A DNA stretch of 64,000 nucleotides, from NCBI GenBank assembly GCA_016714815.1, contig JADKBZ010000016.1, positions 116,609 through 180,608 of the forward strand. The letters run 5' to 3'. The DNA is from Holophagales bacterium. GTDB lineage: Bacteria > Acidobacteriota > Thermoanaerobaculia > UBA5066. Below are positions 16,151 to 49,062 of this stretch, in pieces. How positions within the stretch are numbered: the first letter of the stretch is position 1; every line of letters starts with the position of its first letter. The position numbers were made by a program, and so were the translations under genes. Under the pieces are notes generated by a model, which had not been told where the DNA came from, ran no database searches, and worked only from the letters and a program-made list of their open reading frames with translations.

Positions 16151-16154
16151 CTTC

Positions 16155-29549: not shown

Positions 29550-29655
29550 CCCGCGAACGGCGCGGTGAGCGCGGTGGCGTGGTCAAGCACGCCAGGGGGA
29601 TGGGATTTTGGGAGTCGGCGGGAAGGGGCGGGGGAAACGCAGGCCGCTCCCCACG

Positions 29656-30600: not shown

Positions 30601-30658
30601 CTCGACTCATGCGAAGGATTCACTGGATTCATGATATCGCTGCGCCTACGCTTCGCCC

Positions 30659-33000: not shown

Positions 33001-33836
33001 CATACGTCCCGCGCGGAAAGCACACGATCTTCTACGACGTCACGGGCCCCGACGACGCCCCTCCTCTTCTCCTGGTGATGGGGATGGGCTTCTCCTCGCG
33101 TGCCTGGGCCTCGCTGCCGCAGCGCCTCTCCGAGCACTTTCGCGTGATCGCCTTCGACAACCGCGGAACCGGGAGGTCGAGCGGGTCGGGGATCGTCTTT
33201 CGCGTGCGGGACATGGCCGAGGACGCGGCCGCGGTCCTCGACGCGGCGAACGCCAAAGAAGCTCTCGTCTTCGGGATCTCGATGGGGGGAATGGTGGCGC
33301 TCGAGCTGGCGCTCTGCCACCCGGAGCGCGTCCGCAAGCTCGCTCTCGGAGCGACCTTCGCCGGCTGGCTGCAGAGCCGCAAGCCCTCGCCCTCGACGGT
33401 GGGCGGGGTCCTTCTAGGAGGGGTCCTCTCGCGCGTCGGGGCGCACCGGGTCCTCGGCGAGATCCTCGTCTCCACCGGCTTCGCGGGCCGGGACTACGAC
33501 AAGCTCTCGACCTGGATCGTGAACGGGGAGCGGGTCCGTCCGCACGTCCTGGTCCAGCAGATGACGGCGGTGACGCTCCACGGCACGACCTCGCGCCTCG
33601 GCTCGCTGAGCGTCCCCACGCTCGTCCTGACGGGCGACAGCGACCGGCTCGTCCCCGAGGAGAACTCGAGGCGCCTCGCGGGGCTGATCCCCGGCGCCCG
33701 TCTCGAGGTTCTGCCCGGCGCCGGGCACTGCTTCCCCCTCGAACAGCCGGACGCGACCCTCGCGCAGCTGCTCCGGTTCTTCGGCGAGAGGGTCCCGGCC
33801 GGGAAGGTCGAGGAGACGAAAGCGAGACGGAGGTAG
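32997..33836 (+). CDS. alpha/beta-fold hydrolase
   Basis: The ATG at 32997 overlaps the WS/DGAT stop (ATGA). The nucleophile elbow is GISMGG (GxSxG), and the C-terminus has GAGHCFPLEQPD (His of the triad). Confidence 0.85.
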   Translation: MTYVPRGKHTIFYDVTGPDDAPPLLLVMGMGFSSRAWASLPQRLSEHFRVIAFDNRGTGRSSGSGIVFRVRDMAEDAAAVLDAANAKEALVFGISMGGMVALELALCHPERVRKLALGATFAGWLQSRKPSPSTVGGVLLGGVLSRVGAHRVLGEILVSTGFAGRDYDKLSTWIVNGERVRPHVLVQQMTAVTLHGTTSRLGSLSVPTLVLTGDSDRLVPEENSRRLAGLIPGARLEVLPGAGHCFPLEQPDATLAQLLRFFGERVPAGKVEETKARRR

Positions 33837-33838
33837 GG

Positions 33839-35044
33839 ATGGACTTTTCGGAATCGGCAAAGGTGCGGACGATCCGCCAGGTGGTGCGGGACTTCATGGA
33901 GGCCGAGGTTTTCCCTCTCGAGCAGGCCTTCCTCCACGACGGGTTCGTCGCGATCCTCCCGGTCCTGAAGGAAAAGCGCGAGCGGGCCCGGCAGACCGGT
34001 CTCTTCGCGGCGCACGTCCCGGAAGCGTGGGGCGGGGCGGGGCTCTCGCTTCCCGAGTTCGCGAACATGAGCGAGGAGCTCGGCAGGAGCCCGCTCGGGC
34101 ACTACGTCTTCAACGTCCAGGCGCCCGACGTCGGGAACATGGAAGTCCTGATGGAGCACGGCACGCCGGAGCAGAAGGAGCGGTTCCTCGTCCCTCTCGT
34201 CCGGGGCGAGATCCGGAGCTGCTTCACGATGACGGAGCCGGAGTTCGCCGGCTCGAACCCGGTCCACATGGGGACGACGGCCCGCAGAGACGGAGGGGAG
34301 TGGGTCCTCCGCGGGCACAAGTGGTTCGCGTCGTCGGCGGACGGCGCGGCGTTCGCGGTCTGCATGGCAATCACCGACCCCGACGCGGCCGAGCCCCACC
34401 GGAGGGCGAGCACGATCCTCGTCCCGACGGACACGCCGGGCTTCGAGCTGATCGGAAACCTCTCCGTGATGGGGCACCGCGGCGGCGACTGGGCGAGCCA
34501 CGGCGAGGTCAGCTACCAGGACGCCCGCGTCCCGCTCGGAAACCTCCTCGGCAAGGAAGGGGAGGGCTTCGTCATCGCGCAGGAGAGGCTCGGGCCGGGA
34601 CGGATCCACCACTGCATGCGCTGGATCGGGGTCTGCGAGCGGGCGCACGAGATCCTCTGCCGGCACGCGGCGACGCGGGAGCTCTCGCCGGGAAGGCCGC
34701 TCGGGTCGAAGCAGATCGTGCAGCAGTGGATCGCCGAGAGCCGCGCCGAGATCCACGCGGCGCGCCTGATGGTTCTGCACGCCGCGTGGAAGATCGAGAA
34801 CGAGGGGGCCCGCGCCGCGCGCGAGGAGATCTCCCTCATCAAGTTCACCGTGGCCCGGACGCTCCAGCGCGTCCTGGACAGGGCGATCCAGGCCCTGGGC
34901 GGCCTCGGGATGACCGACGACACGCCGCTCGCCTTCTGGTACGCGCACGAGCGGGCCGCGCGAATCTACGACGGGGCCGACGAGGTCCACGTCGAGTCGG
35001 TGGCGCGCCGGATCCTCGGCCGCTACGGAATGCGCGCGCGGTGA
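33839..35044 (+). CDS. acyl-CoA dehydrogenase
   Basis: ACAD N-terminal, middle and C-terminal domains (FTMTEPEFAGSNP, GEGFVIAQERLGPGRIHHCMRWIG, YDGADEVH). The start is 2 nt after the hydrolase stop. Confidence 0.9.
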   Translation: MDFSESAKVRTIRQVVRDFMEAEVFPLEQAFLHDGFVAILPVLKEKRERARQTGLFAAHVPEAWGGAGLSLPEFANMSEELGRSPLGHYVFNVQAPDVGNMEVLMEHGTPEQKERFLVPLVRGEIRSCFTMTEPEFAGSNPVHMGTTARRDGGEWVLRGHKWFASSADGAAFAVCMAITDPDAAEPHRRASTILVPTDTPGFELIGNLSVMGHRGGDWASHGEVSYQDARVPLGNLLGKEGEGFVIAQERLGPGRIHHCMRWIGVCERAHEILCRHAATRELSPGRPLGSKQIVQQWIAESRAEIHAARLMVLHAAWKIENEGARAAREEISLIKFTVARTLQRVLDRAIQALGGLGMTDDTPLAFWYAHERAARIYDGADEVHVESVARRILGRYGMRAR

Positions 35045-36165
35045 AAGGCGCCGAAGCGGGAGCGGTCCGCGCCGCCGAGGACGGGGGAGCGCGCGGCGCG
35101 GGGGCCGTCCGGCGTGGCGAGGAGCTGGACCTCGCCGCCGTCGACGCCTTCCTCAAGCCGCGCGTCCCGGGCCTGGCGGGGAGCCCGCGCGTCACGCAGT
35201 ACGCGGGCGGGGCGTCGAACTGGACCTACCGGCTGGAGTACCCGTCGCACGACCTCGTCCTCCGGCGGCCCCCCGCCGGCACGAAGGCGAAGTCGGCGCA
35301 CGACATGGGGCGCGAGTTCCGCGTCCAGGCCGCACTCGGCCCCTTCTTTCCGTACGTCCCCGAGATGGTCGCGTTCTGCGACGACCCTTCGGTCCTGGGC
35401 TGCGAGTTCTACGTCATGCGGCGCATCGCGGGGGTCATCCCCCGCGCGAACCTGCCGAAGGGGATCGTCCTGACGCCCGACGAGGCGCGCCGGATGTGCC
35501 TCTCGGTCCTCGACCGGCTCGTCGACCTCCACCGCGTCGACGCGAACGCGGCGGGCCTGGCGGCCCTTGGCAAGGGCGCCGGCTACTGCCGGAGACAGGT
35601 GGACGGCTGGACGGATCGATACGCGAAGGCCCGGACGTGGAACGTCCCGCGATTCGCCCGCGTCACCAATTGGCTGAAGGCGAACACCCCCGACGACGTC
35701 GCCACCTGCGTCATCCACAACGACTTCCGGCTCGACAACGTCGTCCTCGACCCGGACGACGCGACGCGCGTCGTCGGCATCCTCGACTGGGAGATGGCGA
35801 CGCTCGGCGACCCGCTGATGGATCTCGGCAACAGCCTGGCGTACTGGGTAGAGGCGGGGGACGACTTCGTGATCCGCTCGATGCGGCGCCAGCCGACGCA
35901 CCTCCCCGGCATGCTCACGCGGCGGGAGGTCGTGGCCGCCTACTTCGAGCGGTCGGGCCTCCCCGCGCGGGACGTCACCTTCTACGAGGTCTACGGCCTC
36001 TTCCGCCTCGCCGTGATCGCCCAGCAGATCTACTTCCGCTACCACCGGGGCGAGACGAGGAACCCGGCCTTCAGGCGGTTCTGGATCCTGGCGCACTACC
36101 TCCAGTGGCGGTGCGGGCGATTGATCCGCTCATTCACTGATCCATTGATCCGCAACCGAGAGTAG
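35041..36165 (+). CDS. APH-like phosphotransferase family protein (the ACAD10/11-associated kinase type)
   Basis: The GTG at 35041 overlaps the ACAD stop (GTGA). Brenner motif IHNDFRLDNVVL and ILDWEMATLGDP are present. Confidence 0.8.
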   Translation: MKGAEAGAVRAAEDGGARGAGAVRRGEELDLAAVDAFLKPRVPGLAGSPRVTQYAGGASNWTYRLEYPSHDLVLRRPPAGTKAKSAHDMGREFRVQAALGPFFPYVPEMVAFCDDPSVLGCEFYVMRRIAGVIPRANLPKGIVLTPDEARRMCLSVLDRLVDLHRVDANAAGLAALGKGAGYCRRQVDGWTDRYAKARTWNVPRFARVTNWLKANTPDDVATCVIHNDFRLDNVVLDPDDATRVVGILDWEMATLGDPLMDLGNSLAYWVEAGDDFVIRSMRRQPTHLPGMLTRREVVAAYFERSGLPARDVTFYEVYGLFRLAVIAQQIYFRYHRGETRNPAFRRFWILAHYLQWRCGRLIRSFTDPLIRNRE

Positions 36166-36289
36166 GGACAGGAGGCCGCGGCGAGGGGGCTCGGCCCCAA
36201 TGCTGGACGAGTTCGACGCGCTGCCACCCTCAGGGATGGGAAGTCGATCTCGGGCGGCAGTGCGGCCGATCGGCGGGTTGGGCTTCGAC

Positions 36290-36400
36290 GGGCCCAGGGA
36301 CCTCGGGCGGTTCCTCGAGGGCGTGGCGCTGGCACGGGAGTGCTACGATGGATTTCGCGCGCTAACGCAGCGGCAAGCGGCCGCGTCAGCGGCTTCGCCC
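36290..36400 (+). pseudogene. diverged copy of the DAHP synthase 3' end (last ~30 codons) without a stop codon, in frame with the downstream Vgb-like gene
   Basis: At the DNA level, ggttcctcgagggcgtggcgctggcacgggagtgctacga... aligns with ggttcctcgaggacgtcgccctcgcccgggaatgctacga... at 27583-27662 (about 75-80% identity). At the protein level, FLEGVALARECYDGFRALTQRQAAAS aligns with FLEDVALARECYEKRRALVGRHAAAS. Confidence 0.45.
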
Positions 36401-36442
36401 CGCGGTGGGACAAGGCTGGTCCGAAAGAGAAGGAGGGTGGCG

Positions 36443-37450
36443 ATGATGGCGACCGGACGATTCCCCTCGAGTTGTCGCGACCTGCCCCTCCTCGTCCTCG
36501 CAGCGCTCGCGCTCCTGGCAGCCCCGGCCTCGGCCGTGGTTGTGACGAACGAGTTCGCGGTCCCGACGGTGGACGGCGCGCCCAACGGCATCACCACCGG
36601 CCCCGACGGCAACCTCTGGTTCACGGAGTACAACGGCAACCGGATCGGCCGGATCACGCCTTCGGGAGTCGTCACGGAGTTCACGGTCCCGACGGCGTAC
36701 GGCGCTCCGTCCAGCATCACCACCGGCCCCGACGGCAACCTCTGGTTCACGGAGAGCACCGGTAACCGGATCGGCCGGATCACGACGGCCGGAGCCGTCA
36801 CGGAGTTCGCCGCGGGTGGCGGCCCCTCCGGCATCGTGGCCGGCCCCGACGGAAACCTCTGGTTCACGGAGGTTTCCGGCAACAGGATCGGCCGGATCAC
36901 GACAGCCGGAGCCGTCACGGAGTTCACGCTCCCGACCGCGGACAGCTACCCTCATCAGATCACTTCCGGTCCCGACGGGAACCTCTGGTTCACGGAGTAC
37001 GGCGGCAACAGGATCGGACGGATCACGACCGCGGGAGTGATCACGGAGTTCACGGTCCCGACGGCGAGAGCCGCTCTCACCGGCATCACCTCCGGTCCGG
37101 ATGGCAACCTCTGGTTCACGGAGTACCTCGGCAACAGGATCGGTCGGATCACGCCTTCGGGAGTCGTCACGGAGTTCGCGATCCCGACGGAGGAAAGCGC
37201 TCCCTTCGGCATCACGACCGGCCCCGATGGTGCTCTCTGGTTTACGGAGAGCAATGGCAACCGGATCGGCCGGATCACCACCTCGGGAGTCGTCACGGAG
37301 TTCGGGATCCCGACAGCGGCCAGCTGCCCTCATCGGATCACGACCGGCCCCGACGGCGCCCTCTGGTTCACGGAGAACGGCGTCCACAAGATCGGTCGGC
37401 TCGTCGCATCCCCGGCGCCGGTGGAAGTGGTGTCGATCGGCGTGGACTGA
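36443..37450 (+). CDS. secreted Vgb-family (streptogramin-B-lyase-like) seven-bladed beta-propeller protein
   Basis: SD AGGAGGG lies upstream of the ATG at 36443. After a signal peptide (MMATGRFPSSCRDLPLLVLAALALLAAPASA) come seven regular ~42-aa repeats ITTGPDGNLWFTE..GNRIGRIT..G.VTEF.VPT. Confidence 0.75.
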   Translation: MMATGRFPSSCRDLPLLVLAALALLAAPASAVVVTNEFAVPTVDGAPNGITTGPDGNLWFTEYNGNRIGRITPSGVVTEFTVPTAYGAPSSITTGPDGNLWFTESTGNRIGRITTAGAVTEFAAGGGPSGIVAGPDGNLWFTEVSGNRIGRITTAGAVTEFTLPTADSYPHQITSGPDGNLWFTEYGGNRIGRITTAGVITEFTVPTARAALTGITSGPDGNLWFTEYLGNRIGRITPSGVVTEFAIPTEESAPFGITTGPDGALWFTESNGNRIGRITTSGVVTEFGIPTAASCPHRITTGPDGALWFTENGVHKIGRLVASPAPVEVVSIGVD

Positions 37451-37484
37451 AACCGGCGGCCGGGGCAAGCCGACGCGATTCGTG

Positions 37485-38276
37485 TCAGCGCGAGCGCAGG
37501 CGGGCGTGGGCGGCGAGGACGAGGAGCGAGAGCCCGTACGCGATCAGCCCGACGGCGACGAGCCCGAGGAGGACTGGTCCCGATCCGGAGTGCCTGAGCG
37601 TACGGAGCGCGGTTCCCGTCCCGCCGAGGGCCCGCGCGTTCTCTTCGAGCGCCGCGCGGCAGATCGAGTACCCGATGATCGCAGCGACGATGCCGTGCGC
37701 GAACATTCCGAGCCGCGCGAGCACCGAGGTCCACTTCCTTTGCACGCGGGCCATGATGGCGGCCGTGAAGTCGGCCGGAAGCCTCCCGAGCACGGCCCGC
37801 ACCGCCTCCACCCCTCCGATCACGATGGCGATCACGCCTCCGAGCCCCAGCCCGAGGCGGCCCCAGTCGTGGGAGAGGAGGCGGGCGGCCAGGTCACGGA
37901 GCCCCGCCTCGTCGGCTCCCGAGCGGAACTGCAGGAGAACGCGCACGGCCGCGATCGCGAGGACGAGCCCGCCCAGCCCGCTCGTGAAGTAGAAGATCCG
38001 TGAGAGGGGCCGGCGCGTGCGCACGCCCTGCAGGACGCGAAAGAGCACGAACGCGAAAAGGCCGGCCACCACGATCCAGAGAAGGAGCCTCCCGCCCGAC
38101 CCGGTGAGGATCCTGGCGAGCGCGCCCGCCGGCCCGGTGGCACTCCCGCGCTGGAGGATCGCGACACGCGCGGCGATGCCGCCGATCAGGACGTAGACGA
38201 TCCCGCGCGAGAGAAACCCGAAGCGCGCGAGCGCCCCCGGCACGGCCTGCTCCTCGGCTTGCCCTCCCGCGGTCAT
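37485..38276 (-). CDS. DUF1206-type membrane protein
   Basis: Repeated hydrophobic helices in a DUF1206-like arrangement. No catalytic motifs. Confidence 0.55.
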   Translation of the reverse strand: MTAGGQAEEQAVPGALARFGFLSRGIVYVLIGGIAARVAILQRGSATGPAGALARILTGSGGRLLLWIVVAGLFAFVLFRVLQGVRTRRPLSRIFYFTSGLGGLVLAIAAVRVLLQFRSGADEAGLRDLAARLLSHDWGRLGLGLGGVIAIVIGGVEAVRAVLGRLPADFTAAIMARVQRKWTSVLARLGMFAHGIVAAIIGYSICRAALEENARALGGTGTALRTLRHSGSGPVLLGLVAVGLIAYGLSLLVLAAHARLRSR

Positions 38277-38306
38277 GGAACGCCGCGGATCACCAGGCGG
38301 CCTTCG

Positions 38307-38879
38307 TCATCGGAGATCCTCGCCGGGCCGGGGGGCGAAGCGGCGCTCGAGGCGCGGCGCCAGGACGAGGATCAGCATGATGAAGGCCGTGGTCGCGGAA
38401 ATGATCACCCACGAGCCGCAGACCGCGACGATCCCGAGCGCGGCCGTGACCCAGAGAGCCGCGGCCGAGGTCAGGCCGTGCACGCGACCCGTGCCGCCCG
38501 GATCGCGAAAGATCTCGCCGGCGCCGAGGAAGCCGACGCCCGTCGCCACTCCCTGGATCACGCGCGAAAGCGAGTCCCCGCCAAGTGGAAGGCTCGTCTG
38601 GACCGGGATGGCGACGAAGAGGGCCGAGCCGAGGGCGACGAGCGCGTGCGTCCCGACCCCCGCGGGCTTTCCGTTGCGAAAGCGGTTCCAGCCGATCGCG
38701 GCGCCCGCGAGCGCTGCGAACAGGAGGCGGAGAAGAAGGACGGGCTCGCCTGCGTGAGAGGCGAGATCAAGGCCGGAACCCACGACGGCACCTCCGGAAA
38801 GCTGGGCGTCTCGCGACCACTCTAGCGCAGCGGCCGCATAGGAGCCGGGCGGCACGCAATCCGGACGACACCGAGGCAC
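38307..38879 (-). CDS. MgtC/SapB family membrane protein (the real start is probably internal, giving about 165 aa)
   Basis: LLRLLFAALAGAAIGWNRFRNGKPAGVGTHALVALGSALFVAI matches the MgtC N-terminal domain. Confidence 0.6.
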   Translation of the reverse strand: MPRCRPDCVPPGSYAAAALEWSRDAQLSGGAVVGSGLDLASHAGEPVLLLRLLFAALAGAAIGWNRFRNGKPAGVGTHALVALGSALFVAIPVQTSLPLGGDSLSRVIQGVATGVGFLGAGEIFRDPGGTGRVHGLTSAAALWVTAALGIVAVCGSWVIISATTAFIMLILVLAPRLERRFAPRPGEDLR

Positions 38880-39011
38880 CGAAAAGTGGGCCTTCCTCTA
38901 CGATCCTTCAACGTCCAAACGTCTGCGCCCTCCGCCCGTCGCCCCGAAGGTGCTCGGGCAGGTCCGGAGCGACTTCGGGCCCTGCCGTGAGCGCACGTAG
39001 AATCGCCCTCC

Positions 39012-39938
39012 GTGCAGATCGCCGTCCTCGCGCTCGCGTTGCTCCTCGCCGCCCCCGGCCTCTCGTTCGCACAGCCCCCGGGCTCGCGCGTCGTACTCGA
39101 CGTACCGCCGCGCTACACCGCGGCCACGCGTTTTTCCGGTTATCTCGACGAGCCGCGGGGCATCTCGATCGTGATCGCCGAGCTGCCGGGCGTGGCCTTC
39201 GACCAGATTGCCACGGGCATGACGCCCGGGGCGCTGGCCACCCAGAAGATGACGCAGTCCAAACGGGGCACGCTGGCGCGCACCGGCGACTACGTTTATC
39301 TCACCGCGGAGCAGACTCAGGCCGGTACCACCTACGGCAAGTTCCTGCTGGTCACGCGCGAGAACGACGTGACGGCAATCGTGACAGTGAACGTGCCGAA
39401 GGAGCGCCTCACGGCTGGGGACGCCACGGCGGCGGAGTTCGAGGCGATTCTGGCCTCGGCGCGCGTGGCCGGCACCGCCGCAGCCGAGAAGCCGCTCTTC
39501 ACGCTGGGCTACCTCGGGCCGTTCAAGCGGGCCGGTTCGTTCGGCGGTTCCGCCACGCTCTACACGCCCGACGGGGTGATCACGCCGGCCACGCCCGAAC
39601 CGGGGCGGCCCATGTTCCTGGTGGCGCCGTCGATCGACGAGCGGCCGGTCGGCGACCTCGAGGCGTTCGCGCGCCGGGCGCTCGAGGGCACGCGTGGCTT
39701 CTCGGATCTCACCGTGACGGCGACGCGCCCGCTCACCATTGGCGCCCTGCGCGCGGTGGAGCTGACGGCCACGGCCAGTGAAGCGAGCCAGCACACCGAC
39801 GTGGCCATCGTGCAGACCGTGGTCGTCTTGTCCGGCGGCGGCTACGTGCGGATGATGGGGCAGTCTTCGGCCGCCGACTGGGCGCGCCTGCTGCCGGAAT
39901 TCCGCAGGATGGCCGAGAGCTTCACGCCCGCGCCCTGA
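39012..39938 (+). CDS. secreted hypothetical protein
   Basis: Signal peptide MQIAVLALALLLAAPGLSFA. No recognised domain. Confidence 0.45.
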   Translation: MQIAVLALALLLAAPGLSFAQPPGSRVVLDVPPRYTAATRFSGYLDEPRGISIVIAELPGVAFDQIATGMTPGALATQKMTQSKRGTLARTGDYVYLTAEQTQAGTTYGKFLLVTRENDVTAIVTVNVPKERLTAGDATAAEFEAILASARVAGTAAAEKPLFTLGYLGPFKRAGSFGGSATLYTPDGVITPATPEPGRPMFLVAPSIDERPVGDLEAFARRALEGTRGFSDLTVTATRPLTIGALRAVELTATASEASQHTDVAIVQTVVVLSGGGYVRMMGQSSAADWARLLPEFRRMAESFTPAP

Positions 39939-40387
39939 CGCGCCGGTCGCGGCGGCTATCGGCGGGGGGCAGGCCATGCCTGCGCCAGGGTCGGCACCTC
40001 GGCCGCGGCGCCCGCGCGGCGCGCCGCCGCGAGACGCTGCTGCACGACTCGCAGGTGGGCCAAAGAGGGGGACGCCGACGCAGGCGGCGGCGGATGATGA
40101 ACGTCCGGCCCCGGGGTCCAGCGGCTCTGCCTGCTGGACCTGGCTCTGAGCCCGGCGTCCATCGCAGGCGGGCGAGGCTGACGGGGCTCTGCAGGCGATA
40201 GCGGGCGAGAGCCTCGAGTGCCCACCATCAGCTCTCGGACGGTCTGCCAGGCGGCGGAGCAGAGAGGGCCCGGCGGCCCCCGGTGGATGACCTGATAGCG
40301 CTGGAGGCGTCGGGTCCGTTAGCGCCGCGGCATCAAGGGGATCGATGACGACGACGAAATCGGTCTGCGCTGACAGGACTGCCTGTC

Positions 40388-40590
40388 GCTCAGGGCTCGG
40401 CGCCTCCGTACCTGGCAGGTCGAACGCGGCATCTCTCACGAGCACGCGACGCTCCGCGAGGTCCTGGCGGAGCTGGAGAATCCCGGGGCCGAGGTCCGTC
40501 GGCTCCCGCCGGCTCCATCCGCCGCCGCCCTCGCCGGGGACGAGACCCCGAAAGGGCGGCGGCTTCCGGAAATGGCCCGGAGGGCGCTCG
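40388..40590 (+). pseudogene. diverged copy of the pfa3 3' end (last ~55 codons) without a stop codon, abutting the 3' end of the truncated flotillin copy
   Basis: Translation ISHEHATLREVLAELENPGAEVRRLPPAPSAAALAGDETPKGRRLPEMARRALGGG aligns with the pfa3 C-terminus VAHEHATLHEVLAELENPGDEIRRLLAAPSAAALAGDESPEGRWLAELGRRLLGG. The DNA aligns with 24661-24857. Confidence 0.5.
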
Positions 40591-41758
40591 GCGGCGGACC
40601 CCTTCTTCAGCTCCCCGTCGTCGTCTTCTCCGCCGGCGCCCCGAGCCTCGCGACGACCTTCGCGAGGTCGACGCCAAACGCCGTCTTCACCTGCTCGACG
40701 AGCTGGATTCCCTGCGTTACGCGGGCAGAGGCGGGCAGGTAGGAGATCCGGTCGACCCTGACGCTCTGGATCGTCTCGACGAGAGACGACATGACGGTCT
40801 GGAGCTTCTGCATCAGGAAGATGTCGCGGGCGTTGGGGCCGGCGGCCTTCCAGGTTTCGATCATCTGCGTCAGGACGGCGGCGGTCGCGCGGCCGTCCTC
40901 GACGATCTTGGCGGCCTTGCCGCGCGCCTCGGCCTGCCTCTTCTCCATGTCGGCGCGGGCGGGGGCGACGACGTCGGCGTCGAGCTGGAGGCGGACCTGC
41001 TCGATGCGCGCCTGCTGCACCTTCAGCTCGGCCTCGGCCTTGGCGATGGCGGTGGTGACCTTGCCGACCGCCTCGGCGACCATCGCCTCGCGGCCGGTCT
41101 CGCACTGCATGATCCGCTTGTCGGCTTCCGCGCGGGCGATGGCGCCGTCGGCGTCGATCAGGGCGAGGCGCGACGCGAGGCCGTTCTCGGCTTCCCGCAT
41201 GGTGGCCTCGGCGTGGGCCTGCGCCTCGGCGATCCGGGCGCTCTTGTCGAGGGCGGCCGACTGCTTGCGGCCGAGGGAGTTGAGGTAGCCGACGTCGTCG
41301 GAGACGTTCTGGACCTTCAGGACGTCGAGCGTCAGGCCGAGGCGGGAGAGGTCGTGCTCGGCCTCCTCGAGGAGCTTCTCGGCGAAGCGGAGCTTGTCCT
41401 GGTTGACTTCTTCGGGGGTGAGCTGGGAGAGGACGCCGCGCAGATTCCCCTCGAGGGTGTCCTTGGCGACCTGGATGATCTGCGGACGACCCTTCCCGAG
41501 ATGCCGTTCGAGCGCGTTGTTGAGGAGCGGCTGGTGGCCCGCGACCTTCAGGTTGGCGACGCCGGCGACGGTGAGCGGGATGCCGCCCTTGGAGTAGGCG
41601 TTTCTCACGGCGACGTCGACGGTCATGTTGGTGATGTCCATCCGGTCGACCCGCTCCAGGAGCGGCGTGCGAAGGGAGCTGTCTCCCTTGACGATCCGGT
41701 AGCCGACGGGGCGGCCGTCGACCGTCGACTTGCCGCCGGAGAAGACGAGGACCTCGTT
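40571..41758. repeat. left copy of a ~1.2-kb direct repeat (flotillin gene body); its partner is 45917-47116
   Basis: The central ~620 bp is virtually identical between copies, with more substitutions toward both edges. Similarity ends abruptly after gaggacctcgtt (41758 in this copy, 47116 in the other). Confidence 0.85.
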
Positions 41759-41785
41759 CTTCTCTCCCTCACTCCCTGCCGGCAC
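40607..41785 (-). pseudogene. 5'-truncated flotillin/SPFH (YqiK-like) paralog lacking the N-terminal membrane anchor
   Basis: The product is identical over most of its length to the flotillin at 45966-47213. Its N-terminus (MPAGSEGEKNEVLVFSGG) replaces the MIGDLGSVVGVAIGVVLFFGVAALFVVKRLF anchor. Homology ends at the island junction. Confidence 0.5.
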
Positions 41786-42175
41786 TCGGCTGGCTGACCC
41801 CGAAAGAAATTCTCAGAGACCTGTTGTAAAAAGCCGGGCCTCGCGCAGCTTAGCTATAGCGGACAAAGGCTGAGTCCGCCTTTTCCTCCTCGATCAGGAG
41901 GCAGAGGAGGCTGTGAGGAGTGTGAACAGAAAACTCTCTTCCTCGACCGGGTGCCAGCGGCGGTCCGTCCCGGCAGGGCCAAGGGGAAGTGAATGGATGC
42001 CGAAGTCGTCGACCGGACTCTCCGGCTGTCGCGAAACGCCAGGCGTGTACTCGCGGCCCTTACGCCACGCGCGGGCGCCACCTAATAGTCGAACCGCCAG
42101 CCACTCTGCAGGTAAGGGCGCACGCAAGCGGCGTCCGCAAGCTGCGACGGCGTCCGGAAGCAAGAAGGAGTAGAG

Positions 42176-44983
42176 TTGAAGTCCCCTAAGTCATTCTGCC
42201 CGCGACCAATGATCACTATGGCGGTTCTCTCTTCGTTTATCCTGTCCTTACCGACTCCGGCCGCTGAGCCCGGGAAAGATGCTCTCGCCGGGACGCTGGT
42301 CATCCGCTCCGGAAAGTCCCCTGTCGAGGCGGTCCTCAAGGACACCCCGGAACTGGTGGGGATAGAACAGTACTGCCAGAACGGCCAGTGTATCGTCCTC
42401 CCTCGAAGCGGAGCCGAGTTGGAAGCGCTCAGGGCCTTGGAGAAGGCTGGGGAGGTCGAACTGGAGCCGTTCCCCGACGCGAGAAGGATTTACTTCGCCA
42501 AGGCCACCTACGATGCGGACGCAGGCGCTTTCGACGCCCAGTTCCATGGCAGCGCAGAGGTCGGCGGTCCCTCGGCCCTGGGCCAGTGGGCGGTCATCCT
42601 AAAGGCCTTCTTGAGCCCAGCCTGGCAGAAAGACTTCGAGAACGCCGGGTTCTTCCTGGGAGATTCCCTGGGACCGGTCGCCTACCAGCTATTCGGCCCG
42701 ACGGAGGCACTCCAAGCTCTCCTTACAAGAGTGCCGTATATCGCAGCGACCGTTCCAATCCCCCACGGGATCAAGCGCTTTCGTGTCGACGAGCCACTTC
42801 CAGGGGATGAGGACGGCGCCTCAGCCCCGACAACGGTTGCGATCTTCGCCTTGGAGGAGTCGCCGGCTCGAACGCTTCTTGAGAGGCGGGAAGGGTTACC
42901 GCTTTCGGTCGTCTACACGTCGAAGAAGACCGTCGCCTATCGCGCATCTCTGACCCGGGACGAGGCGCTCTATCTCAGCACCTTCCCCGATGTCGTCGCC
43001 GTCATGCGAGAGACGGCTACGGCGAGTCCGTCGGATGAACGCAGCAACCGGATCATCGCGGGAGCATTTCAGGACCCGTCCTCATCGTGGCCACTGTCTC
43101 TCACACCGAACACGAGCCCTCCGTTCTGGAACGGCTACCTCGCGTCTCTGGCCAGCATCGGCATTCACCCTGAGAATCAGACAATCGGCTTTCTCGACAG
43201 TGGCGTGGGGCTCTCGCCGATGCTCACCTGCCCTCCGGCCCTCGTTGATCCGACTAGCGGCAAGTGCAGCCTCACTCTCTATGACAACGGCGGCGTCGAC
43301 CTGAGGAGCATCGCGGACGTCGTCGAGGAGTTCGGCGATCCGGCGCTTCGGGGAAACGACTACCTTAGCCATGGAACTCTGACGACGGCGATCGCCGCCG
43401 GCTTTGCTACTCTTGTCAGAAGCCGGGATGACGAACAGTACTCCATGAGCCAGGGGGTCGCGCCGGGGGCCAAGATAGCGATGAGCCGAACGCTGGTGGG
43501 GCTCGGGCTGAGCTGCATCCCGGACTCCACGCCCCCTCAATTCAAGTCCTATCGGAGATTCCCGAACATGCCTGGGGGCGGATATCTGTTCTACGATGAT
43601 CTGAAGGTCCGTTACTCTCTTGCAGTTCTAAGTCAGCCGGTAAACCCAGACATCCTGGCGCCAGATGGTGTCATGGGGGCAGGCGCAACGCTTTTCAATC
43701 ACAGCTGGAACTTGCCCTCTATTTCGGACTACGGCCCGGTGGATATCATTCTGGACAAGAGCGCGCGGACGCTCTCGTCGGTTACGTTCGATTTCGGGCC
43801 GGATCACGATCACCCCAACGTTCTCACCGGGCCGGCGGTTCCGGCGACGCATGTGGTCTCGGCAGGCAATACGGACACGTCTTCCAACCCAACGATGGTC
43901 ACTTCTCCTGGGACGGCCAAGAACGTGATCACCGTAGGAGCGACGGAAAGCTACAACCAGCTGCCCCCGACCTCGTACCCTGTCGGCTGTCGAGCGGGAG
44001 AACTGGCCGATGCCGACAACCCGCGCCAGATTGCGATTCTGAGCCGGTTCGGGTATCCGAACAACCGCCTGAAACCCGACATCGTGGCGCCGGGGACGCG
44101 CGTCTTCGCACCCTTTAGTGAAGCGTATAACACGAGCGAATCCTGCATAGGGAAGCTGGCGTGCTATTCGGCTGTGGGCACTGTGAAGCGGCCGCACATC
44201 ATCACTTCCGGCACGAGCTTCGCCGCGCCGGCCGTCACTGGCGTTGTAGCGCTGCTTCGCGAGTGGTTTGGCGTCCTTGGAAAACCAGTGCCGAGCCCGG
44301 CCATGATACGAGCTACCTTGATCGTCGGCGCTCAGAACCTCGTCGAATTCCGAAGTGCCTGGGGCGCCTGCCACGACGCCAATGGCGGCCAGTGGTGGTG
44401 CGGCGACATGAGGCCTGCTCCCGATCAGTACCAGGGATGGGGGGGCGTGTCGCTTGCCCGCTACTTCAGCCCCGCGTCGAACTACTTCTTCCATGACCAG
44501 GAGAACGACACGATTCTGTGCCAAGACTGCTCAGGTCCCGGAAGCCAACCCTGGACGACCACGCTGACCATAAACGATTCTTCGAAGGTGGTTCGACTCG
44601 CGGTGGCCTGGACCGACGCGGCGGGGACGGAGGTCCTCGCGCCGTTCGACAACCTCAAGAACGATCTCGATCTGGAGGTCCGCGCAACCGGGAGCGACGG
44701 AATCCCACACGTCTGGTACGGAAACGTCTTCTATTCGAATCGGGACGATCTGGCGCGAACCGAGAACTCGCTCCGGGATCCGGCCTCCCCGGTCTCGAGG
44801 GATCGAAAGAACAACCAGGAGAAAGCTGCGATCGCCCCGGTGGGGCAGCCGAATGGCCTCCCGGCCGGTGCGACGACACTCACGATCACAGTCAGGGCCT
44901 TCAACCTCACCGAGAACGGCCTCATTCCCGACGACCCGGCAAGGAGACAAGACTTTGCCATAGCAGTGGAGAACGCACATTGA
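42176..44983 (+). CDS. secreted subtilisin-like serine peptidase (S8 family), 935 aa, in a lower-GC island
   Basis: SD AAGGAG lies 5 nt before the TTG at 42176 (alternative ATG at 42209). Signal peptide present. Catalytic triad motifs are FLDSGVG (Asp), HGTLTTAIAAG (His) and GTSFAAPAVTGVVALL (Ser). There is a long C-terminal extension. Confidence 0.85.
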   Translation: MKSPKSFCPRPMITMAVLSSFILSLPTPAAEPGKDALAGTLVIRSGKSPVEAVLKDTPELVGIEQYCQNGQCIVLPRSGAELEALRALEKAGEVELEPFPDARRIYFAKATYDADAGAFDAQFHGSAEVGGPSALGQWAVILKAFLSPAWQKDFENAGFFLGDSLGPVAYQLFGPTEALQALLTRVPYIAATVPIPHGIKRFRVDEPLPGDEDGASAPTTVAIFALEESPARTLLERREGLPLSVVYTSKKTVAYRASLTRDEALYLSTFPDVVAVMRETATASPSDERSNRIIAGAFQDPSSSWPLSLTPNTSPPFWNGYLASLASIGIHPENQTIGFLDSGVGLSPMLTCPPALVDPTSGKCSLTLYDNGGVDLRSIADVVEEFGDPALRGNDYLSHGTLTTAIAAGFATLVRSRDDEQYSMSQGVAPGAKIAMSRTLVGLGLSCIPDSTPPQFKSYRRFPNMPGGGYLFYDDLKVRYSLAVLSQPVNPDILAPDGVMGAGATLFNHSWNLPSISDYGPVDIILDKSARTLSSVTFDFGPDHDHPNVLTGPAVPATHVVSAGNTDTSSNPTMVTSPGTAKNVITVGATESYNQLPPTSYPVGCRAGELADADNPRQIAILSRFGYPNNRLKPDIVAPGTRVFAPFSEAYNTSESCIGKLACYSAVGTVKRPHIITSGTSFAAPAVTGVVALLREWFGVLGKPVPSPAMIRATLIVGAQNLVEFRSAWGACHDANGGQWWCGDMRPAPDQYQGWGGVSLARYFSPASNYFFHDQENDTILCQDCSGPGSQPWTTTLTINDSSKVVRLAVAWTDAAGTEVLAPFDNLKNDLDLEVRATGSDGIPHVWYGNVFYSNRDDLARTENSLRDPASPVSRDRKNNQEKAAIAPVGQPNGLPAGATTLTITVRAFNLTENGLIPDDPARRQDFAIAVENAH

Positions 44984-45891
44984 AGAAGCTTCTTCTCGTC
45001 GTCACTCTCGGCGTCGCTGCGACCGCTCTTCCCGCGGCGGAACAGAAGCGTTACTACGTCCCGCTCATTCATGCCCAGACGGGGTTGGAGATCATTCCGG
45101 GTGCGACTCCGGAAGATACTCAAGTGATTCAAACGCTGTGGATGGGGAATATCTCAGCGTTCAATTCGAGCAACGTAACGGCTTCGATCACACCCACGGC
45201 CGTATACGGAGGGTTCGTTTTCAGGCCGGGCAGCCACTCGATAGGTCTCGAAGCGGGAACAGGCGATCAGTTCGTCCGGTGGCCGTATGCGGGATTTGCA
45301 GGACCCAGTATCGGTCCGGTCGGCTTCGCCGAGCTGATGGCGGACACCGGGATGGTCGTGAACGCGGGGGTCGAGAAGGCTCAATACTGCGCGGGATGCC
45401 CCATACCGGATCGGGTCGATCAAGCGGCCCTGGTCTCGCAGGGGCGCTCGGCGATTCCCGTGTTCGAGGAGCTGTTCCCGGCAGGCCGATCGGTCATCTG
45501 CGGCGAAGTCAACCTCGGGGCGCCCCGCCAAATCTGCGGGAAGCCGGCGAATCAGCAGTACCCGCGACGCGTGAACGTGACGCTCTTCAACGCCGGAAGC
45601 GCCCCCGCGACGTTCAAGGTCGAGGCGATTCCGCTCTACACGGACCCCGACCCGATCTTCTCGCAGACGGTCACCGTGGCGGCGAAGGACGTGATCCAGC
45701 TGAACGACGTGCCGATTCCGCGGATCGAGAACGGGCACATGACGGTCGACTTCGACGTCTACGTCTGGATCCGGATCCACTGCGACCAGCCCTTCCTGGC
45801 GTACGCCAGCTCGATCTTCGAGGGTGGGGCGACGGGGTCGATGCCCTTCGAAGTCTTCACGCCACGGCTGGCCGCCGAGACCGGGCCGTGA
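44980..45891 (+). CDS. secreted hypothetical protein (about 303 aa) downstream of the S8 peptidase
   Basis: The TTG start overlaps the peptidase stop. Signal peptide LKKLLLVVTLGVAATALPAAE. Cys-containing, with no recognised domain. Confidence 0.45.
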   Translation: MKKLLLVVTLGVAATALPAAEQKRYYVPLIHAQTGLEIIPGATPEDTQVIQTLWMGNISAFNSSNVTASITPTAVYGGFVFRPGSHSIGLEAGTGDQFVRWPYAGFAGPSIGPVGFAELMADTGMVVNAGVEKAQYCAGCPIPDRVDQAALVSQGRSAIPVFEELFPAGRSVICGEVNLGAPRQICGKPANQQYPRRVNVTLFNAGSAPATFKVEAIPLYTDPDPIFSQTVTVAAKDVIQLNDVPIPRIENGHMTVDFDVYVWIRIHCDQPFLAYASSIFEGGATGSMPFEVFTPRLAAETGP

Positions 45892-45916
45892 GAAATAGCT
45901 AGGTCAGTTCCCGGAT

Positions 45917-47116
45917 GGAGGGGCGCCGCCGGAGGCGGCGGCGCCTACCCCTTCTCCGCCGGTGCCTACCCCTTCTCTTCCGGCGCCCCGAGCCGCGCGA
46001 CGACCTTCGCCAGGTCGACGCCGAAGGCGGTCTTGACCTGCTCGACGAGCTGGATCCCCTGCGTCACGCGCGCGTCCGCCGGGAGGTAGGAGATCCGGTC
46101 GACCCTGACGCTCTGGATCGTCTCGACGAGAGACGACATGACGGTCTGGAGCTTCTGCATCAGGAAGATGTCGCGGGCGTTGGGGCCGGCGGCCTTCCAG
46201 GTTTCGATCATCTGCGTCAGGACGGCGGCGGTCGCGCGGCCGTCCTCGACGATCTTGGCGGCCTTGCCGCGCGCCTCGGCCTGCCTCTTCTCCATGTCGG
46301 CGCGGGCGGGGGCGACGACGTCGGCGTCGAGCTGGAGGCGGACCTGCTCGATGCGCGCCTGCTGGACCTTCAGCTCGGCCTCGGCCTTGGCGATGGCGGT
46401 GGTGACCTTTCCGACCGCTTCGGCGACCATCGCCTCGCGGCCGGTCTCGCACTGCATGATCCGCTTGTCGGCTTCGGCGCGGGCGATCGCGCCGTCGGCG
46501 TCGATCAGGGCGAGGCGCGACGCGAGGCCGTTCTCGGCTTCCCGCATGGTGGCCTCGGCGTGGGCCTGCGCCTCGGCGATCCGGGCGCTCTTGTCGAGGG
46601 CGGCCGACTGCTTGCGGCCGAGGGAGTTGAGGTAGCCGACGTCGTCGGAGACGTTCTGGACCTTCAGGACGTCGAGCGTCAGGCCGAGGCGGGAGAGGTC
46701 GTGCTCGGCCTCCTCGAGGAGCTTCTCGGCGAAGCGGAGCTTGTCCTGGTTGACCTCCTCGGGGGTGAGCTGGGAGAGAACGCCGCGGAGGTTGCCTTCG
46801 AGGGTGTCCTTGGCGACCTGGATGATCTGCGGGCGGCCTTTGCCGAGGAGGCGCTCGAGGGCGTTGTTGAGGAGCGGCTGGTGGCCGGCGACCTTGAGGT
46901 TGGCGACGCCGGCGACGGTGAGCGGGATGCCTCCCTTGGAGTAGGCGTTGCTCACGGCGACGTCGACGGTCATGTTGGTGATGTCCATCCGGTCGACGCG
47001 CTCCAGGAGCGGAGTACGCAGGGAGCTGCCCCCCTTGACGATCCGGTAGCCGACGGCGCGGCCGTCGACGGTCGACTTGCCGCCGGAGAAGACGAGGACC
47101 TCGTTCGGGCTGCAGA
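45917..47116. repeat. right copy of the ~1.2-kb flotillin direct repeat
   Basis: See 40571-41758. The 3' flank of this copy (45917-45960) also carries a ~35-bp remnant resembling the extreme pfa3 tail. Confidence 0.85.
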
Positions 47117-47213
47117 TGTGGAAGAGGCGCTTGACGACGAAGAGCGCCGCCACGCCGAAAAAGAGGACGACGCCGATGGCGACGCCGACGACGGAACCGA
47201 GATCGCCGATCAT
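45966..47213 (-). CDS. flotillin family (SPFH/band-7, YqiK-like) protein, full length
   Basis: N-terminal TM anchor, an SPFH domain and a long Ala/Glu-rich coiled-coil (AEAQAHAEATMREAENGLASRLALIDADGAIARAEAD...). Confidence 0.9.
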   Translation of the reverse strand: MIGDLGSVVGVAIGVVLFFGVAALFVVKRLFHICSPNEVLVFSGGKSTVDGRAVGYRIVKGGSSLRTPLLERVDRMDITNMTVDVAVSNAYSKGGIPLTVAGVANLKVAGHQPLLNNALERLLGKGRPQIIQVAKDTLEGNLRGVLSQLTPEEVNQDKLRFAEKLLEEAEHDLSRLGLTLDVLKVQNVSDDVGYLNSLGRKQSAALDKSARIAEAQAHAEATMREAENGLASRLALIDADGAIARAEADKRIMQCETGREAMVAEAVGKVTTAIAKAEAELKVQQARIEQVRLQLDADVVAPARADMEKRQAEARGKAAKIVEDGRATAAVLTQMIETWKAAGPNARDIFLMQKLQTVMSSLVETIQSVRVDRISYLPADARVTQGIQLVEQVKTAFGVDLAKVVARLGAPEEKG

Positions 47214-48484
47214 CGCGCCACCTCCGGCCGGACCGGCGAGAGGAGCGCGACGACGTCGACCCCCGTCGTCCGGCTCACCTCGGCCAGGACGCTGCGCACC
47301 GCCGCCGGGTAGGAAGCGACGTACGTCGCGAGAGCCGAGCCGTCGCCGTTGTCGAGGAGGTGGGTCTCGCCGATCTCCATCGCCTTCACCCGCTCGACGA
47401 CCGTCCGGAGGATCTGCTCGAGGTTGTGGATCAGGAAGATGTCCTTCGCGTCGGGACCGGCGCTCGCCCAGGCCGCGGTCATCAGCTTCAGCACCTCGGC
47501 GAGGGCCCAGCCGTTCTCCTCGATCGTCGCGGCGTCCCCGCGTGCCGCGAGCGCGGCCGCCTGCTGCGCGGCCTGCGCGGGGAGGACCATCTCGGCCTGC
47601 AGGCGCGTCTCTTCCAGCGTCTTTCGGATGGCCTGGAGCTTCTGCTCGGCCTCGGCGCGGGCCTGGAGGGCCGCCTGGATGGCCGTCTCCTCGGCGGCCT
47701 TCGCCTTCGCCTCGAGCTGCGCCTTCAGGGTCTTCAGCTCGTTCTCCTTCTGGGCGATGGTCGTTCCCGCCTGCTGGTTGGCGACCTCGCCGGCGCGCCG
47801 CGACGCGGCCTCTCCCTGCGAGGCTTCAGACCGGGCGAGGGATTCGGCCATCTCCGCGTCGCGCAGGACCATGGCGATCCGCGCGCGGCCGATGGAGGCG
47901 AGGTAGTTCGCCTCGTCGGAGACGTTCTGGATCTTCAGCGTGTCGAGCGTGAGCCCGAGCTTGCGGAAGTCCCCCTCGGCTTCGTCGACGAGGCCGGTGG
48001 CGAACTTGAGGCGGTCCTCGTTGACCTCCTCGGGGGTGAGGTTCGCGAGGACGCCGCGCAGGTGTCCCTCGAGGCTCTCCTTGGCGACTCGGGCGATCTC
48101 CGCCGGATCGCGGCCGAGGAAGCGCTCGATGGCGTTCCCGACGACCTTCGGGTCGGAGGCGATCTTCACGTTCGCGATGGCGTGGACCTTCAGCGGAATG
48201 CCGCCCTTCGAGTAGGCGTTCGACACCTTCAGGTCGATCGGGATCGACAGGAGGCTCATCCGGTCGACCTGCTCGAGGAGCGGGATTCGCACGGACCGGC
48301 CTCCCAGGACGACGCGGTAGCCCACCTGGCTTCCGTCGGCGAGCTTGCGCTTGCGGCCGGAGAAGATGACGACCTGGTTCGGCGGGCAGATGACGACGAT
48401 CGAGCGGGCGAGGGCCGAGAGGATGCCGAGCGCCACGGCGCCTGCAATGACCCCGGCCCCGATACCGGCGAGAGAGTCGAGCAC
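47210..48484 (-). CDS. second, divergent flotillin-family (SPFH) protein
   Basis: N-terminal TM helix, an SPFH domain and a coiled-coil region, about 40% identical to the downstream flotillin. A 4-bp start/stop overlap links it to the same operon. Confidence 0.85.
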   Translation of the reverse strand: MLDSLAGIGAGVIAGAVALGILSALARSIVVICPPNQVVIFSGRKRKLADGSQVGYRVVLGGRSVRIPLLEQVDRMSLLSIPIDLKVSNAYSKGGIPLKVHAIANVKIASDPKVVGNAIERFLGRDPAEIARVAKESLEGHLRGVLANLTPEEVNEDRLKFATGLVDEAEGDFRKLGLTLDTLKIQNVSDEANYLASIGRARIAMVLRDAEMAESLARSEASQGEAASRRAGEVANQQAGTTIAQKENELKTLKAQLEAKAKAAEETAIQAALQARAEAEQKLQAIRKTLEETRLQAEMVLPAQAAQQAAALAARGDAATIEENGWALAEVLKLMTAAWASAGPDAKDIFLIHNLEQILRTVVERVKAMEIGETHLLDNGDGSALATYVASYPAAVRSVLAEVSRTTGVDVVALLSPVRPEVAR

Positions 48485-48513: not shown

Positions 48514-49062
48514 CTATTCCTTCCAGGGAGCGGGCTCGACCTCGGCAATCCCTTCCCGGAAGCGGACGACGACGACGCGTTCGCGGATCTCGATGGGGAC
48601 CCCTCCCGTGCGGGCCGGGACCTCGACGTCCTGGTCGCCGACGTGGAGGCGGATCTTGCCGAGGCCGTCGGGAAGGAGAGGAAGGACGACTTCCCCTTCC
48701 GAGCCGAGGAAGGCCTCCGTCGAGGCCGGGCCGGTCGCCGAGCCGCTCCCGAGGGAGCGGAAGAGGGCCGCCACGCCCCCTCCGACGACGAAGCCGAGGA
48801 CGATGGCGGCCGGGACGTGGAGACCGGCGCTGACCCCGAGGAGGGAAAGGGCGGTGCCGGCCATGCCGAAGGCGCCGAGAGCGTAGGTCCAGAAACGGAG
48901 TGAGAGGAGGTTGGTGAGAAAGGCGCCGTGGTCGGCGTCGCCGTGTCCGGCCCCGTGGTCGTCGCCCGTTCCCGTGTCGTGCCCGCCGCCGTCTCCCTGG
49001 AAGACGGACGCGCCGATGAGGACGAGGCCGAAGGCCAGCGCCGCGAGGTAGACGGTCAGCAT
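48514..49062 (-). CDS. NfeD/YqiJ-like membrane protein, first gene of the nfeD-floT-floT operon
   Basis: Two TM helices with a His/Asp/Gly-rich loop, then a C-terminal OB-fold-like soluble domain (EGEVVLPLLPDGLGKIRLHVGDQDVEVPART). Confidence 0.7.
   Translation of the reverse strand: MLTVYLAALAFGLVLIGASVFQGDGGGHDTGTGDDHGAGHGDADHGAFLTNLLSLRFWTYALGAFGMAGTALSLLGVSAGLHVPAAIVLGFVVGGGVAALFRSLGSGSATGPASTEAFLGSEGEVVLPLLPDGLGKIRLHVGDQDVEVPARTGGVPIEIRERVVVVRFREGIAEVEPAPWKE

Follow-up and report, generated by a model that had tools for sequence, protein, structure and literature searches.

A displaced pfa3 gene end as the probable relic of an ancestral pfa3-flotillin junction in an uncultured acidobacterium

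Why would a genome carry a second, stop-less copy of the last codons of a gene many kilobases beyond the intact original? The question is raised by a 64,000-nucleotide stretch of a Holophagales contig, referred to here in its entirety as the window. The 3' end of pfa3, which encodes a PUFA-synthase subunit with a C-terminal AGPAT domain, recurs within it as the second arm of a direct repeat that flanks 15.5 kb, with the intact gene first and a 5'-truncated fragment downstream in the same orientation (Table 1). Self-BLAST of the window aligns the two copies plus/plus over 184 ungapped bp with 148 identities (80.4%; E = 4.9e-40). A sequence-only reading of the same DNA had described the copy as the last ~55 codons of pfa3 at ~85% identity; the copy is real, and its dimensions are corrected here to 61 codons and the lower identity. 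As that reading had stated, the copy has lost its stop: the reading frame is retained (WQVERGISHEHATLREVLAELENPG...), and GGA stands where pfa3 has TGA. Also as described, the 3' end of a truncated flotillin gene, floTa', adjoins it on the opposite strand, its stop lying 12 nt past the last aligned base of the relic. The window has a GC content of 70%, and GC3 frame analysis yields a clear gene map.

Table 1. Features of the pfa3-flotillin region (positions in the window; strand; basis of assignment).
Feature	Position	Strand	Basis
pfa3, intact PUFA-synthase subunit (KS-CLF-AT-4xFabA/DH-AGPAT)	16155..24857	+	Pfam; 2900-aa ORF; GC3 0.92
Functional pfa3 tail, last 61 codons, repeat copy A	24670..24853	+	Self-BLAST, alignment; conserved among homologs
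Composite cargo I1, 15.5 kb	24858..40410	.	Pfam, NCBIfam, PHROGs; absent from L004/L016/L018
Functional DAHP synthase (DAHPS) 3' end, repeat copy	27566..27658	+	Gene 26529..27662; self-BLAST
Displaced stop-less DAHPS 3' relic	36295..36387	+	In frame with 5' part of ORF 36200..37450
Displaced pfa3 3' relic, 61 codons, stop replaced by GGA	40411..40594	+	Self-BLAST, empty-site colinearity
Remodelled ancestral junction, 12-nt spacer	40595..40606	.	Alignments with empty-site genomes
floTa', 5'-truncated flotillin (Band_7)	40607..41785	-	Pfam, self-BLAST
Cargo I2, 4.2 kb, 62% GC	41760..45935	.	Composition, Pfam/NCBIfam/PHROGs
S8 peptidase (I2)	42176..44983	+	Pfam
Secreted 303-aa protein (I2)	44980..45891	+	ORF
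Intact floTa, 415 aa	45966..47213	-	ORF, Band_7/flotillin
floTb	47210..48484	-	Flotillin operon; synteny with L004, L005, L012, L016, L018
nfeD-like gene	48514..49062	-	Flotillin operon; synteny with L004, L005, L012, L016, L018

The answer begins with relatives in which nothing separates the two genes. The reference genomes nearest to the pfa3 C-terminus are MAGs of Holophagales/Thermoanaerobaculia (Acidobacteriota), with 83-89% amino acid identity, followed at 59-70% by Myxobacteria. Two genomes that are separate GTDB species representatives (L016 and L018) carry floTa-floTb-nfeD on the opposite strand within about 10 nt of pfa3, and the histidine kinase that comes next is also that of the window. 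A metagenome contig whose pfa3 C-terminus is 94% identical (L004) has the same empty-site layout. In all three, the overlapping stops of pfa3 and floTa form a CTAG palindrome. Single-base details of the junctions in L004 and L005 are unreliable, because these two assemblies are error-prone and contain frameshifts, but L016 and L018 agree on the overlap. Window positions 40411-41759 are colinear with L004 10891-12222 in a single block (91.3% over 1350 bp) that runs from the pfa3 tail straight into floTa. The window junction differs from the empty sites by an 18-nt indel, which accounts for the missing pfa3 stop of the relic and for a new C-terminus of floTa'. Because of the colinearity with L004, the CTAG empty sites and the junction indel, the relic together with floTa' very probably represents the preserved ancestral pfa3/floTa junction. 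The proposal that pfa3 and the nfeD-floT-floT operon were once directly convergent is thereby upheld, and the comparative check suggested with it finds the genes adjacent in L004, L016 and L018.

The flotillin side of the junction shows a duplication of its own. Self-BLAST matches 40589-41759 to 45936-47106 with 94.5% identity over 1173 bp, and the homology breaks off abruptly at 41759/47106; floTa' therefore lacks the first 36 codons, including a hydrophobic N-terminal segment. The two genes differ by 43 synonymous and 7 non-synonymous changes (dN/dS 0.05). The branch leading to floTa' carries 10 synonymous and 4 non-synonymous changes of its own, another 23 sites at which the two genes differ are also polymorphic among relatives, and blocks of differences alternate with identical tracts. 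On one reading of the low dN/dS, floTa' may still be a selected gene. What may be the simpler reading of these patterns is that floTa and floTa' are alleles from separate lineages, where each diverged while functional; they would then have been combined and later have acquired patches of gene conversion. Between the two copies lies I2, which is compositionally foreign at 62% GC and has distant homologs (about 35-36% amino acid identity) at the same site in L017 and L019.

A further remnant of the pfa3 tail, ~35 bp long, had been reported beside the intact flotillin copy at 45.92 kb. This claim does not hold: when the 74-nt flank (45892-45965) is compared with the real pfa3 tail, 233 of 1000 shuffles reach the score. 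Against the relic copy the match is marginal (29 of 1000 shuffles) and rests mostly on ACCCCTTCT in the flotillin-side spacer. The same flank contains a GC hairpin with a 9-bp stem (45922-45945), and the 3' end of floTa itself is duplicated in tandem over 21 nt (45943-45963 and 45964-45984).

The DNA between pfa3 and its relic is a composite. I1 encodes, in its first part, SBP_bac_5, DAHP synthase, a multi-TM 616-aa protein, LysR, SDR and WS/DGAT, and in the rest an alpha/beta hydrolase, an acyl-CoA dehydrogenase, an APH-family kinase, a Vgb-lyase-like propeller, DUF1206, MgtC and a secreted 308-aa protein. Within it, the DAHPS 3' end is duplicated in the same manner as that of pfa3, as the sequence-only reading had noted; the paired protein segments read FLEDVALARECYEKRRALVGRHAAAS and FLEGVALARECYDGFRALTQRQAAAS. 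That reading had also treated 24858-40390 as DNA inserted later. Its absence from L004, L016 and L018 supports later arrival, but not as one insertion, as at least three layers can be told apart: DUF1206-MgtC, an SBP-DAHPS-Vgb block that sits between pfa3 and DUF1206, and an 8.6-kb block nested in the DAHPS 3' end. The DUF1206-MgtC layer is common to the window and L020, L005 and L013, with 88% nucleotide identity to L020.

Searches with Pfam, NCBIfam and PHROGs find no integrase, transposase, recombinase or phage genes among the cargo ORFs of the window, and Pfam finds no recombinase in the cargo of L012, L013, L014, L015 and L020. The three unannotated ORFs (unk616, unk308 and unk303) were considered as a possible hiding place for an integrase and rejected: they have zero Pfam, NCBIfam or PHROGs matches, and all three look secreted or membrane-bound. 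One of them, unk308, was also queried against PDB sequences and has no match there. Neither terminal inverted nor direct repeats rise above shuffle level at the ends of the three inserts. A transposon or IS insertion is not indicated: there are no TIRs and no transposase, and the repeats measure 93-1359 bp instead of forming a short, fixed TSD.

Across 12 related genomes, the interval between pfa3 and floTa ranges from 0 to 21 kb and holds differing cargo. For example, L005 and L013 carry DUF1206 and a 2-hydroxyacid dehydrogenase, L012 and L014 a 2-hydroxyacid dehydrogenase with other genes, L020 DUF1206-MgtC and 6 kb that include a Calx-beta protein, and L011 a Vgb-like gene and a second floTa. 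By tblastn, the window has no homolog of the L005 dehydrogenase. Displaced 3' fragments accompany the cargo in the window and in several of these relatives. In the window, the order of intact gene, cargo and relic is seen for pfa3, floTa and DAHPS. In L011, a 1359-bp repeat (99.85%) that spans floTa and the last ~126 bp of floTb flanks ~4 kb. L017 has floTa relics of 70 and 230 nt directly past the pfa3 stop, then S8-like cargo and then intact floTa; L020 retains a 67-nt floTa relic, and L005 and L013 a 27-nt relic of the pfa3 tail just upstream of the dehydrogenase gene. The gene-end repeats accordingly vary in length (93, 184, 1135 and 1359 bp). Of the two explanations offered earlier for such repeated signatures, a mechanism targeting gene 3' ends or a recombination hotspot, the hotspot fits the varied cargo and recurring relics, and 3'-end targeting is not needed.

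These features can be joined in one scenario. In the ancestor, pfa3 and floTa would have been convergent and abutting, with their stops overlapping in CTAG, and DNA, about 21 kb in total in the window, would then have been added on both sides of this junction by homology-anchored recombination. An incoming molecule consisting of a pfa3 3' fragment and foreign downstream genes would recombine within pfa3; pfa3 would thereby retain a complete 3' end with the cargo behind it, and its former 3' end would be displaced downstream, still joined to floTa. On the other side, a floTa 3' fragment with the S8-peptidase cargo would have entered in the same way, with the 5'-truncated floTa' left next to the pfa3 relic. 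A direct repeat flanking the cargo is the expected product of a single crossover with a circularised fragment (Campbell-type insertion-duplication), and homology-facilitated illegitimate recombination (HFIR) involving a sister chromosome would have the same outcome. Homology would cease where the neighbourhoods of donor and recipient diverge, and for this reason the relic would seem to end at the stop codon. Apparent 3'-end targeting would likewise be a by-product, since homology runs out at the gene end and an event that disrupted the anchor gene would not survive.

This overall explanation, a relic of the ancestral junction combined with homology-anchored insertion, is probably correct. The specific recombination route, anchored in homology and independent of a recombinase, is inferred and is favoured only slightly; it agrees better than an integrase or a transposon with the varied repeat lengths, the abrupt inner boundaries, the lack of a recombinase, the involvement of three anchor genes and the allele-like floTa copies. 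We infer that the cargo originated in other genomes. No donor genome came to light in which the SBP-DAHPS cargo follows pfa3. Two expected traces of a donor were also sought and set aside. Sliding identity against L004, L005 and L006 shows no breakpoint between a donor tail and a resident body of pfa3, only a fast-evolving tail. Some sites hinted that the relic is nearer to the empty-site alleles than to the window's tail, but an NJ tree with 13 relatives places it with the tail.

The rival that fares best is a purely in-situ rearrangement with no imported anchor, in which a staggered or long-gapped break with fill-in, or a tandem duplication followed by deletions or template switching, would have produced copies that then diverged. 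In the NJ tree, the relic forms a sister pair with the pfa3 tail of the window itself, on the longer branch, and the two have ELENPG in common; this position is equally compatible with in-situ duplication. The lack of a visible breakpoint in pfa3 also speaks for this rival, and the near-identity of the L011 repeat is what would be expected soon after duplication. However, had there been a simple tandem duplication, the cargo should be duplicated or the junction should look different, and neither is the case. A floTa' that had arisen in situ and evolved neutrally should have about three quarters of its branch changes non-synonymous, against the 4N:10S observed and the additional differences at polymorphic sites. 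The foreign composition of I2 also argues against a local origin, and outside entry of DNA is indicated because the cargo is wholly different between close relatives. An in-situ origin is on balance unlikely.

Somewhat less probable still is site-specific integration of an island into the pfa3 3' end, by which the element would have supplied a replacement 3' end within its attachment site and its integrase would since have been lost. Integrase islands produce the same topology, with an intact gene, the island and a comparably long displaced 3' fragment (about 55-60 codons), and the pfa3 repeat contains a 21-nt exact identity (CTCACGAGCACGCGACGCTCC) that could be a core. That identity, the longest in the repeat, nevertheless coincides with the conserved HEHATL codons, and there is one long pfa3-side event for comparison. 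Another metagenome offers an Xer-like N-terminus fused to a pfa3 3' fragment (P0070 on L010), but L010 is a 1.36-kb contig of low coverage and may be chimeric. Tyrosine or serine recombinases, excisionases, phage genes and conjugation genes are all lacking from I1, I2, the nested block and the cargo of the five relatives named above. The cargo consists instead of ordinary metabolic and secreted-protein genes layered by several events, and the signature occurs in three genes with very different repeat lengths.

Might the relic have been kept because it is useful? As a functional element under selection, it could be a small protein gene, a regulatory RNA, or a 3' UTR or terminator for floTa'. 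Its frame is open over 122 codons (40374-40742) at a GC3 of 0.85, it is 100% identical across five assemblies, and a 27-nt core of the tail is retained upstream of the dehydrogenase gene in L005 and L013. Against this, an open frame of 61 codons has an estimated chance probability of about 0.3 at 70% GC, and the identity over 184 bp is uninformative because the five assemblies are ~99.9% identical overall. An in-frame TGA lies upstream at ~40371, the relic frame contains no ATG, GTG or TTG before 40572, and a canonical start codon is thus absent upstream of the homologous part. The relic matches nothing in Pfam or NCBIfam. There are no tRNA genes in the window, no Rfam families in the 24.5-47.5 kb span and no terminator or promoter consensus in 39.8-42.3 kb, the regions around the relic included. 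As a separate matter, the 27-nt core (CCCTCGCCGGGGACGAGA) was considered as a dispersed repeat or regulatory motif and rejected, as it is found in tails and relics only.

The substitutions of the relic point the same way. When changes are polarised with eight outgroups, the relic branch carries 19 derived changes, 12 non-synonymous and 7 synonymous, which fits the neutral expectation (P = 0.25); the branch of the functional tail carries 10. The pfa3 tails of homologs end in GRWLxELGRRLLG, a motif that is near-invariant across orthologs and reads GRRLPEMARRALG in the relic. Five of its 13 residues are lost in the relic alone, together with the Trp that is invariant in a wider alignment, and GC3 has fallen to 0.85 from about 0.92-0.95. 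This neutral-like pattern, which wipes out invariant residues, makes a selected function very improbable. Judged by these changes, the relic is a decaying, non-functional pseudogene fragment in neutral evolution.

The structure has also been recovered repeatedly. L001 (contig JAHZTR010018770.1, GCA_020054605.1) matches 35899-46751 at 99.9%, and among ENA and Logan metagenome contigs L092 matches 29012-40863, L095 and L096 extend to 40766 at 100%, and L091 covers 22536-25768, including the left junction; four other assemblies have the relic at 100% identity. Short-read assemblers could be led into a chimeric join by repeats of 184 bp and 1.17 kb, yet the copies of these repeats are divergent enough (80% and 94.5% identical) to be resolved, and misassembly, which the sequence-only reading had named as evidence that would count against it, is excluded beyond any practical doubt by the concurrence of at least five independent assemblies from different samples (L001, L092, L095 and L096, with L091 for the left junction only).

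With homology-anchored insertion as the preferred explanation, the locus provides a clean and well-controlled example of accessory DNA building up between a pair of conserved operons in the absence of mobile-element machinery. Empty and occupied sites are available, as are relics of several ages, at 99.85%, 95%, 80% and 70% identity and down to 27-nt scraps. Gene-end relics of this kind can be used to trace ancestral gene order and to date insertions, and they call for caution in annotation, as stop-less gene-end fragments and the 5'-truncated flotillin need care before gene calling. More tentatively, and with the balance of probability against it, the pfa3-flotillin interval of this Holophagales-type clade could act as a recombinase-independent cassette site, from which RecA would excise a circle of repeat and cargo that reinserts into relatives through the conserved gene. 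If this were true, C-terminal displacement would be a general route by which housekeeping genes such as those for PUFA synthase, flotillin and DAHP synthase seed and enlarge genomic islands.

Displaced gene ends are familiar from several systems, and each resembles the window in part. Prophage e14 and phage 21 integrate within the 3' part of the housekeeping gene icd in E. coli; the insert supplies a similar version of the last ~50-55 codons, and beyond its far end the displaced icd 3' end persists as a pseudogene fragment. The window would likewise combine integration in the 3' part of a gene with a replacement tail and a displaced original end. In contrast to e14 and phage 21, which have a phage integrase, a defined att core and a prophage as the insert, no integrase, phage genes or defined core are found in the window.

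HFIR offers a second comparison. Its classical form, with linear DNA, usually deletes or replaces the recipient DNA beyond the anchor. In the window, by contrast, the recipient 3' end is kept as a duplicate, and a circular intermediate or a second chromosome copy would therefore be needed. What the proposed history of the window would have in common with HFIR is a one-sided homologous anchor (here pfa3 or floTa) that brings in foreign DNA, an abrupt and putatively illegitimate joint at the other end and no need of mobile-element genes. The process is described in natural transformation (de Vries and Wackernagel, 2002; Prudhomme et al., 2002; Meier and Wackernagel, 2003; as cited in PMC5361080) and in E. 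coli conjugation (PMC3240628).

The closest structural parallels come from polymorphic toxins. For the displacement of rhs C-termini, the published model is a single homologous crossover that involves a circular intermediate (Jackson et al., 2009, PMC2935791). Effector-immunity arrays of CDI and T6SS loci also contain orphan 3' regions, for which HFIR has been put forward (Kirchberger et al., 2017, PMC5361080). These arrays and the window have the same arrangement: an intact gene, new DNA and the old, 5'-truncated 3' end silent downstream, in nested or serial order and with no integrase. The genes themselves differ, as those of the window encode a PUFA synthase, a flotillin and a DAHP synthase. 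Pfam finds no toxin or immunity domains at the window locus, which, unlike rhs-type loci, lacks immunity genes and any sign of selected tip diversity. New and old tips are homologous in the window (80-95%), whereas rhs-type tips are alternative toxin domains. Moreover, the window cargo sits after the gene, whereas an rhs-type insert replaces the functional tip. The scar is not the mark of a new molecular system; scars of this kind are known, and it is the setting that is unusual, a PUFA-synthase/flotillin hotspot in an uncultured member of the Acidobacteriota.

In L011, one of the relatives that carry cargo between the PUFA synthase gene pfa3 and the intact flotillin gene floTa, a near-perfect direct repeat encloses ~4 kb of unannotated cargo. 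This repeat is very young and represents a recent, independent event of the same type as that in the window. In L017, another cargo-bearing relative, an internally deleted relic of floTa matches the intact gene over 70 nt at 100% and over 230 nt at 92% identity. The relic is followed by homologs of the S8 peptidase and the secreted 303-aa protein found between the two flotillin copies of the window, which are just ~36% identical to their window counterparts. Together, the relic and these divergent homologs suggest that one cassette replaced another between two flotillin anchors. The coordinates of these and the following features are collected below.

Features of the window and of related loci
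Feature	Source	Position	Remark
pfa1-pfa2-pfa3 PUFA synthase cluster	window	8109-24857	complete, myxobacterial-type
Displaced 3' relic of the DAHP synthase gene	window	36295-36387	in frame with 5' part of Vgb-lyase-like ORF 36200..37450
Low-GC block	window	41760-45935	encodes 935-aa S8 peptidase and secreted 303-aa protein
Perfect hairpin, 9-bp GC stem (GGCGCCGCC-GGAGGC-GGCGGCGCC), with adjoining 21-nt tandem duplication	window	45922-45984 region	downstream of intact floTa
Convergent pfa3/floTa stop overlap in palindrome CTAG	L004; L016; L018	~11075-11085; ~3160-3178; ~10895-10912	
pfa3-tail core, 25-27 nt (CCGCCCTCGCCGGGGACGAGAGCCC)	L005; L013	11874-11900; 6899-6923	
Direct repeat, 1359 bp, 99.85% identical	L011	12494-13852 and 17926-19284	spans floTa and floTb 3' end
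floTa relic, internally deleted	L017	4488-4775	directly after pfa3 stop
P0070 ORF	L010 (ENA ERZ781243 NODE_34013, 1359 bp)		

At the pfa3-floTa junction of the three empty-site genomes (L004, L016 and L018), there is zero intergenic space, and a terminator cannot fit. In the window, the hairpin beside intact floTa is followed by a tandem duplication of 21 nt of the floTa 3' end, with a second CTA stop triplet. The adjoining block that encodes the S8 peptidase has 62% GC against ~70-73% in the blocks that flank it, a composition that suggests a recent foreign origin.

Displaced gene ends also occur within or beside other genes. In L005 and L013, a core of the pfa3 tail, 96% identical to the displaced pfa3 3' relic of the window, lies beyond an inserted DUF1206 gene and ~45 nt upstream of a 2-hydroxyacid dehydrogenase start; it may have been kept as part of the upstream region of that gene. 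Similarly, the N-terminus of the Vgb-lyase-like protein may incorporate a scrap of the DAHP synthase gene end, unless the true start is further downstream; the product is called as 335 aa in other assemblies. Separately, window positions 36531-37402 consist of ~126-bp tandem repeats, 75-80% identical, that correspond to the blades of a Vgb-lyase/NHL-type propeller, and L011 has the same array.

In L010, P0070 is an in-frame fusion of ~65 aa of a XerC/D-like integrase N-terminus, assigned by a weak PF02899 match, with the C-terminal ~190 aa of a pfa3 homolog. The fusion reflects either a chimeric, low-coverage contig or a displaced pfa3 3' fragment beside a recombinase gene in another organism. 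The long contigs L004 and L005 (ENA ERZ25039503 and ERZ25039527) appear to come from error-prone long-read assemblies, because frameshifts split their pfa3 into many short gene calls. The proteins P0016 and P0017 do not represent genuine variants; both are frame-shifted C-termini.

The pfa3 product of the window carries an AGPAT domain at its C-terminus. For the pfa3 C-terminus, the nearest reference genomes are Holophagales/Thermoanaerobaculia (Acidobacteriota) MAGs, at 83-89% amino acid identity, whereas Sorangium and Enhygromyxa reach only 59-70%.
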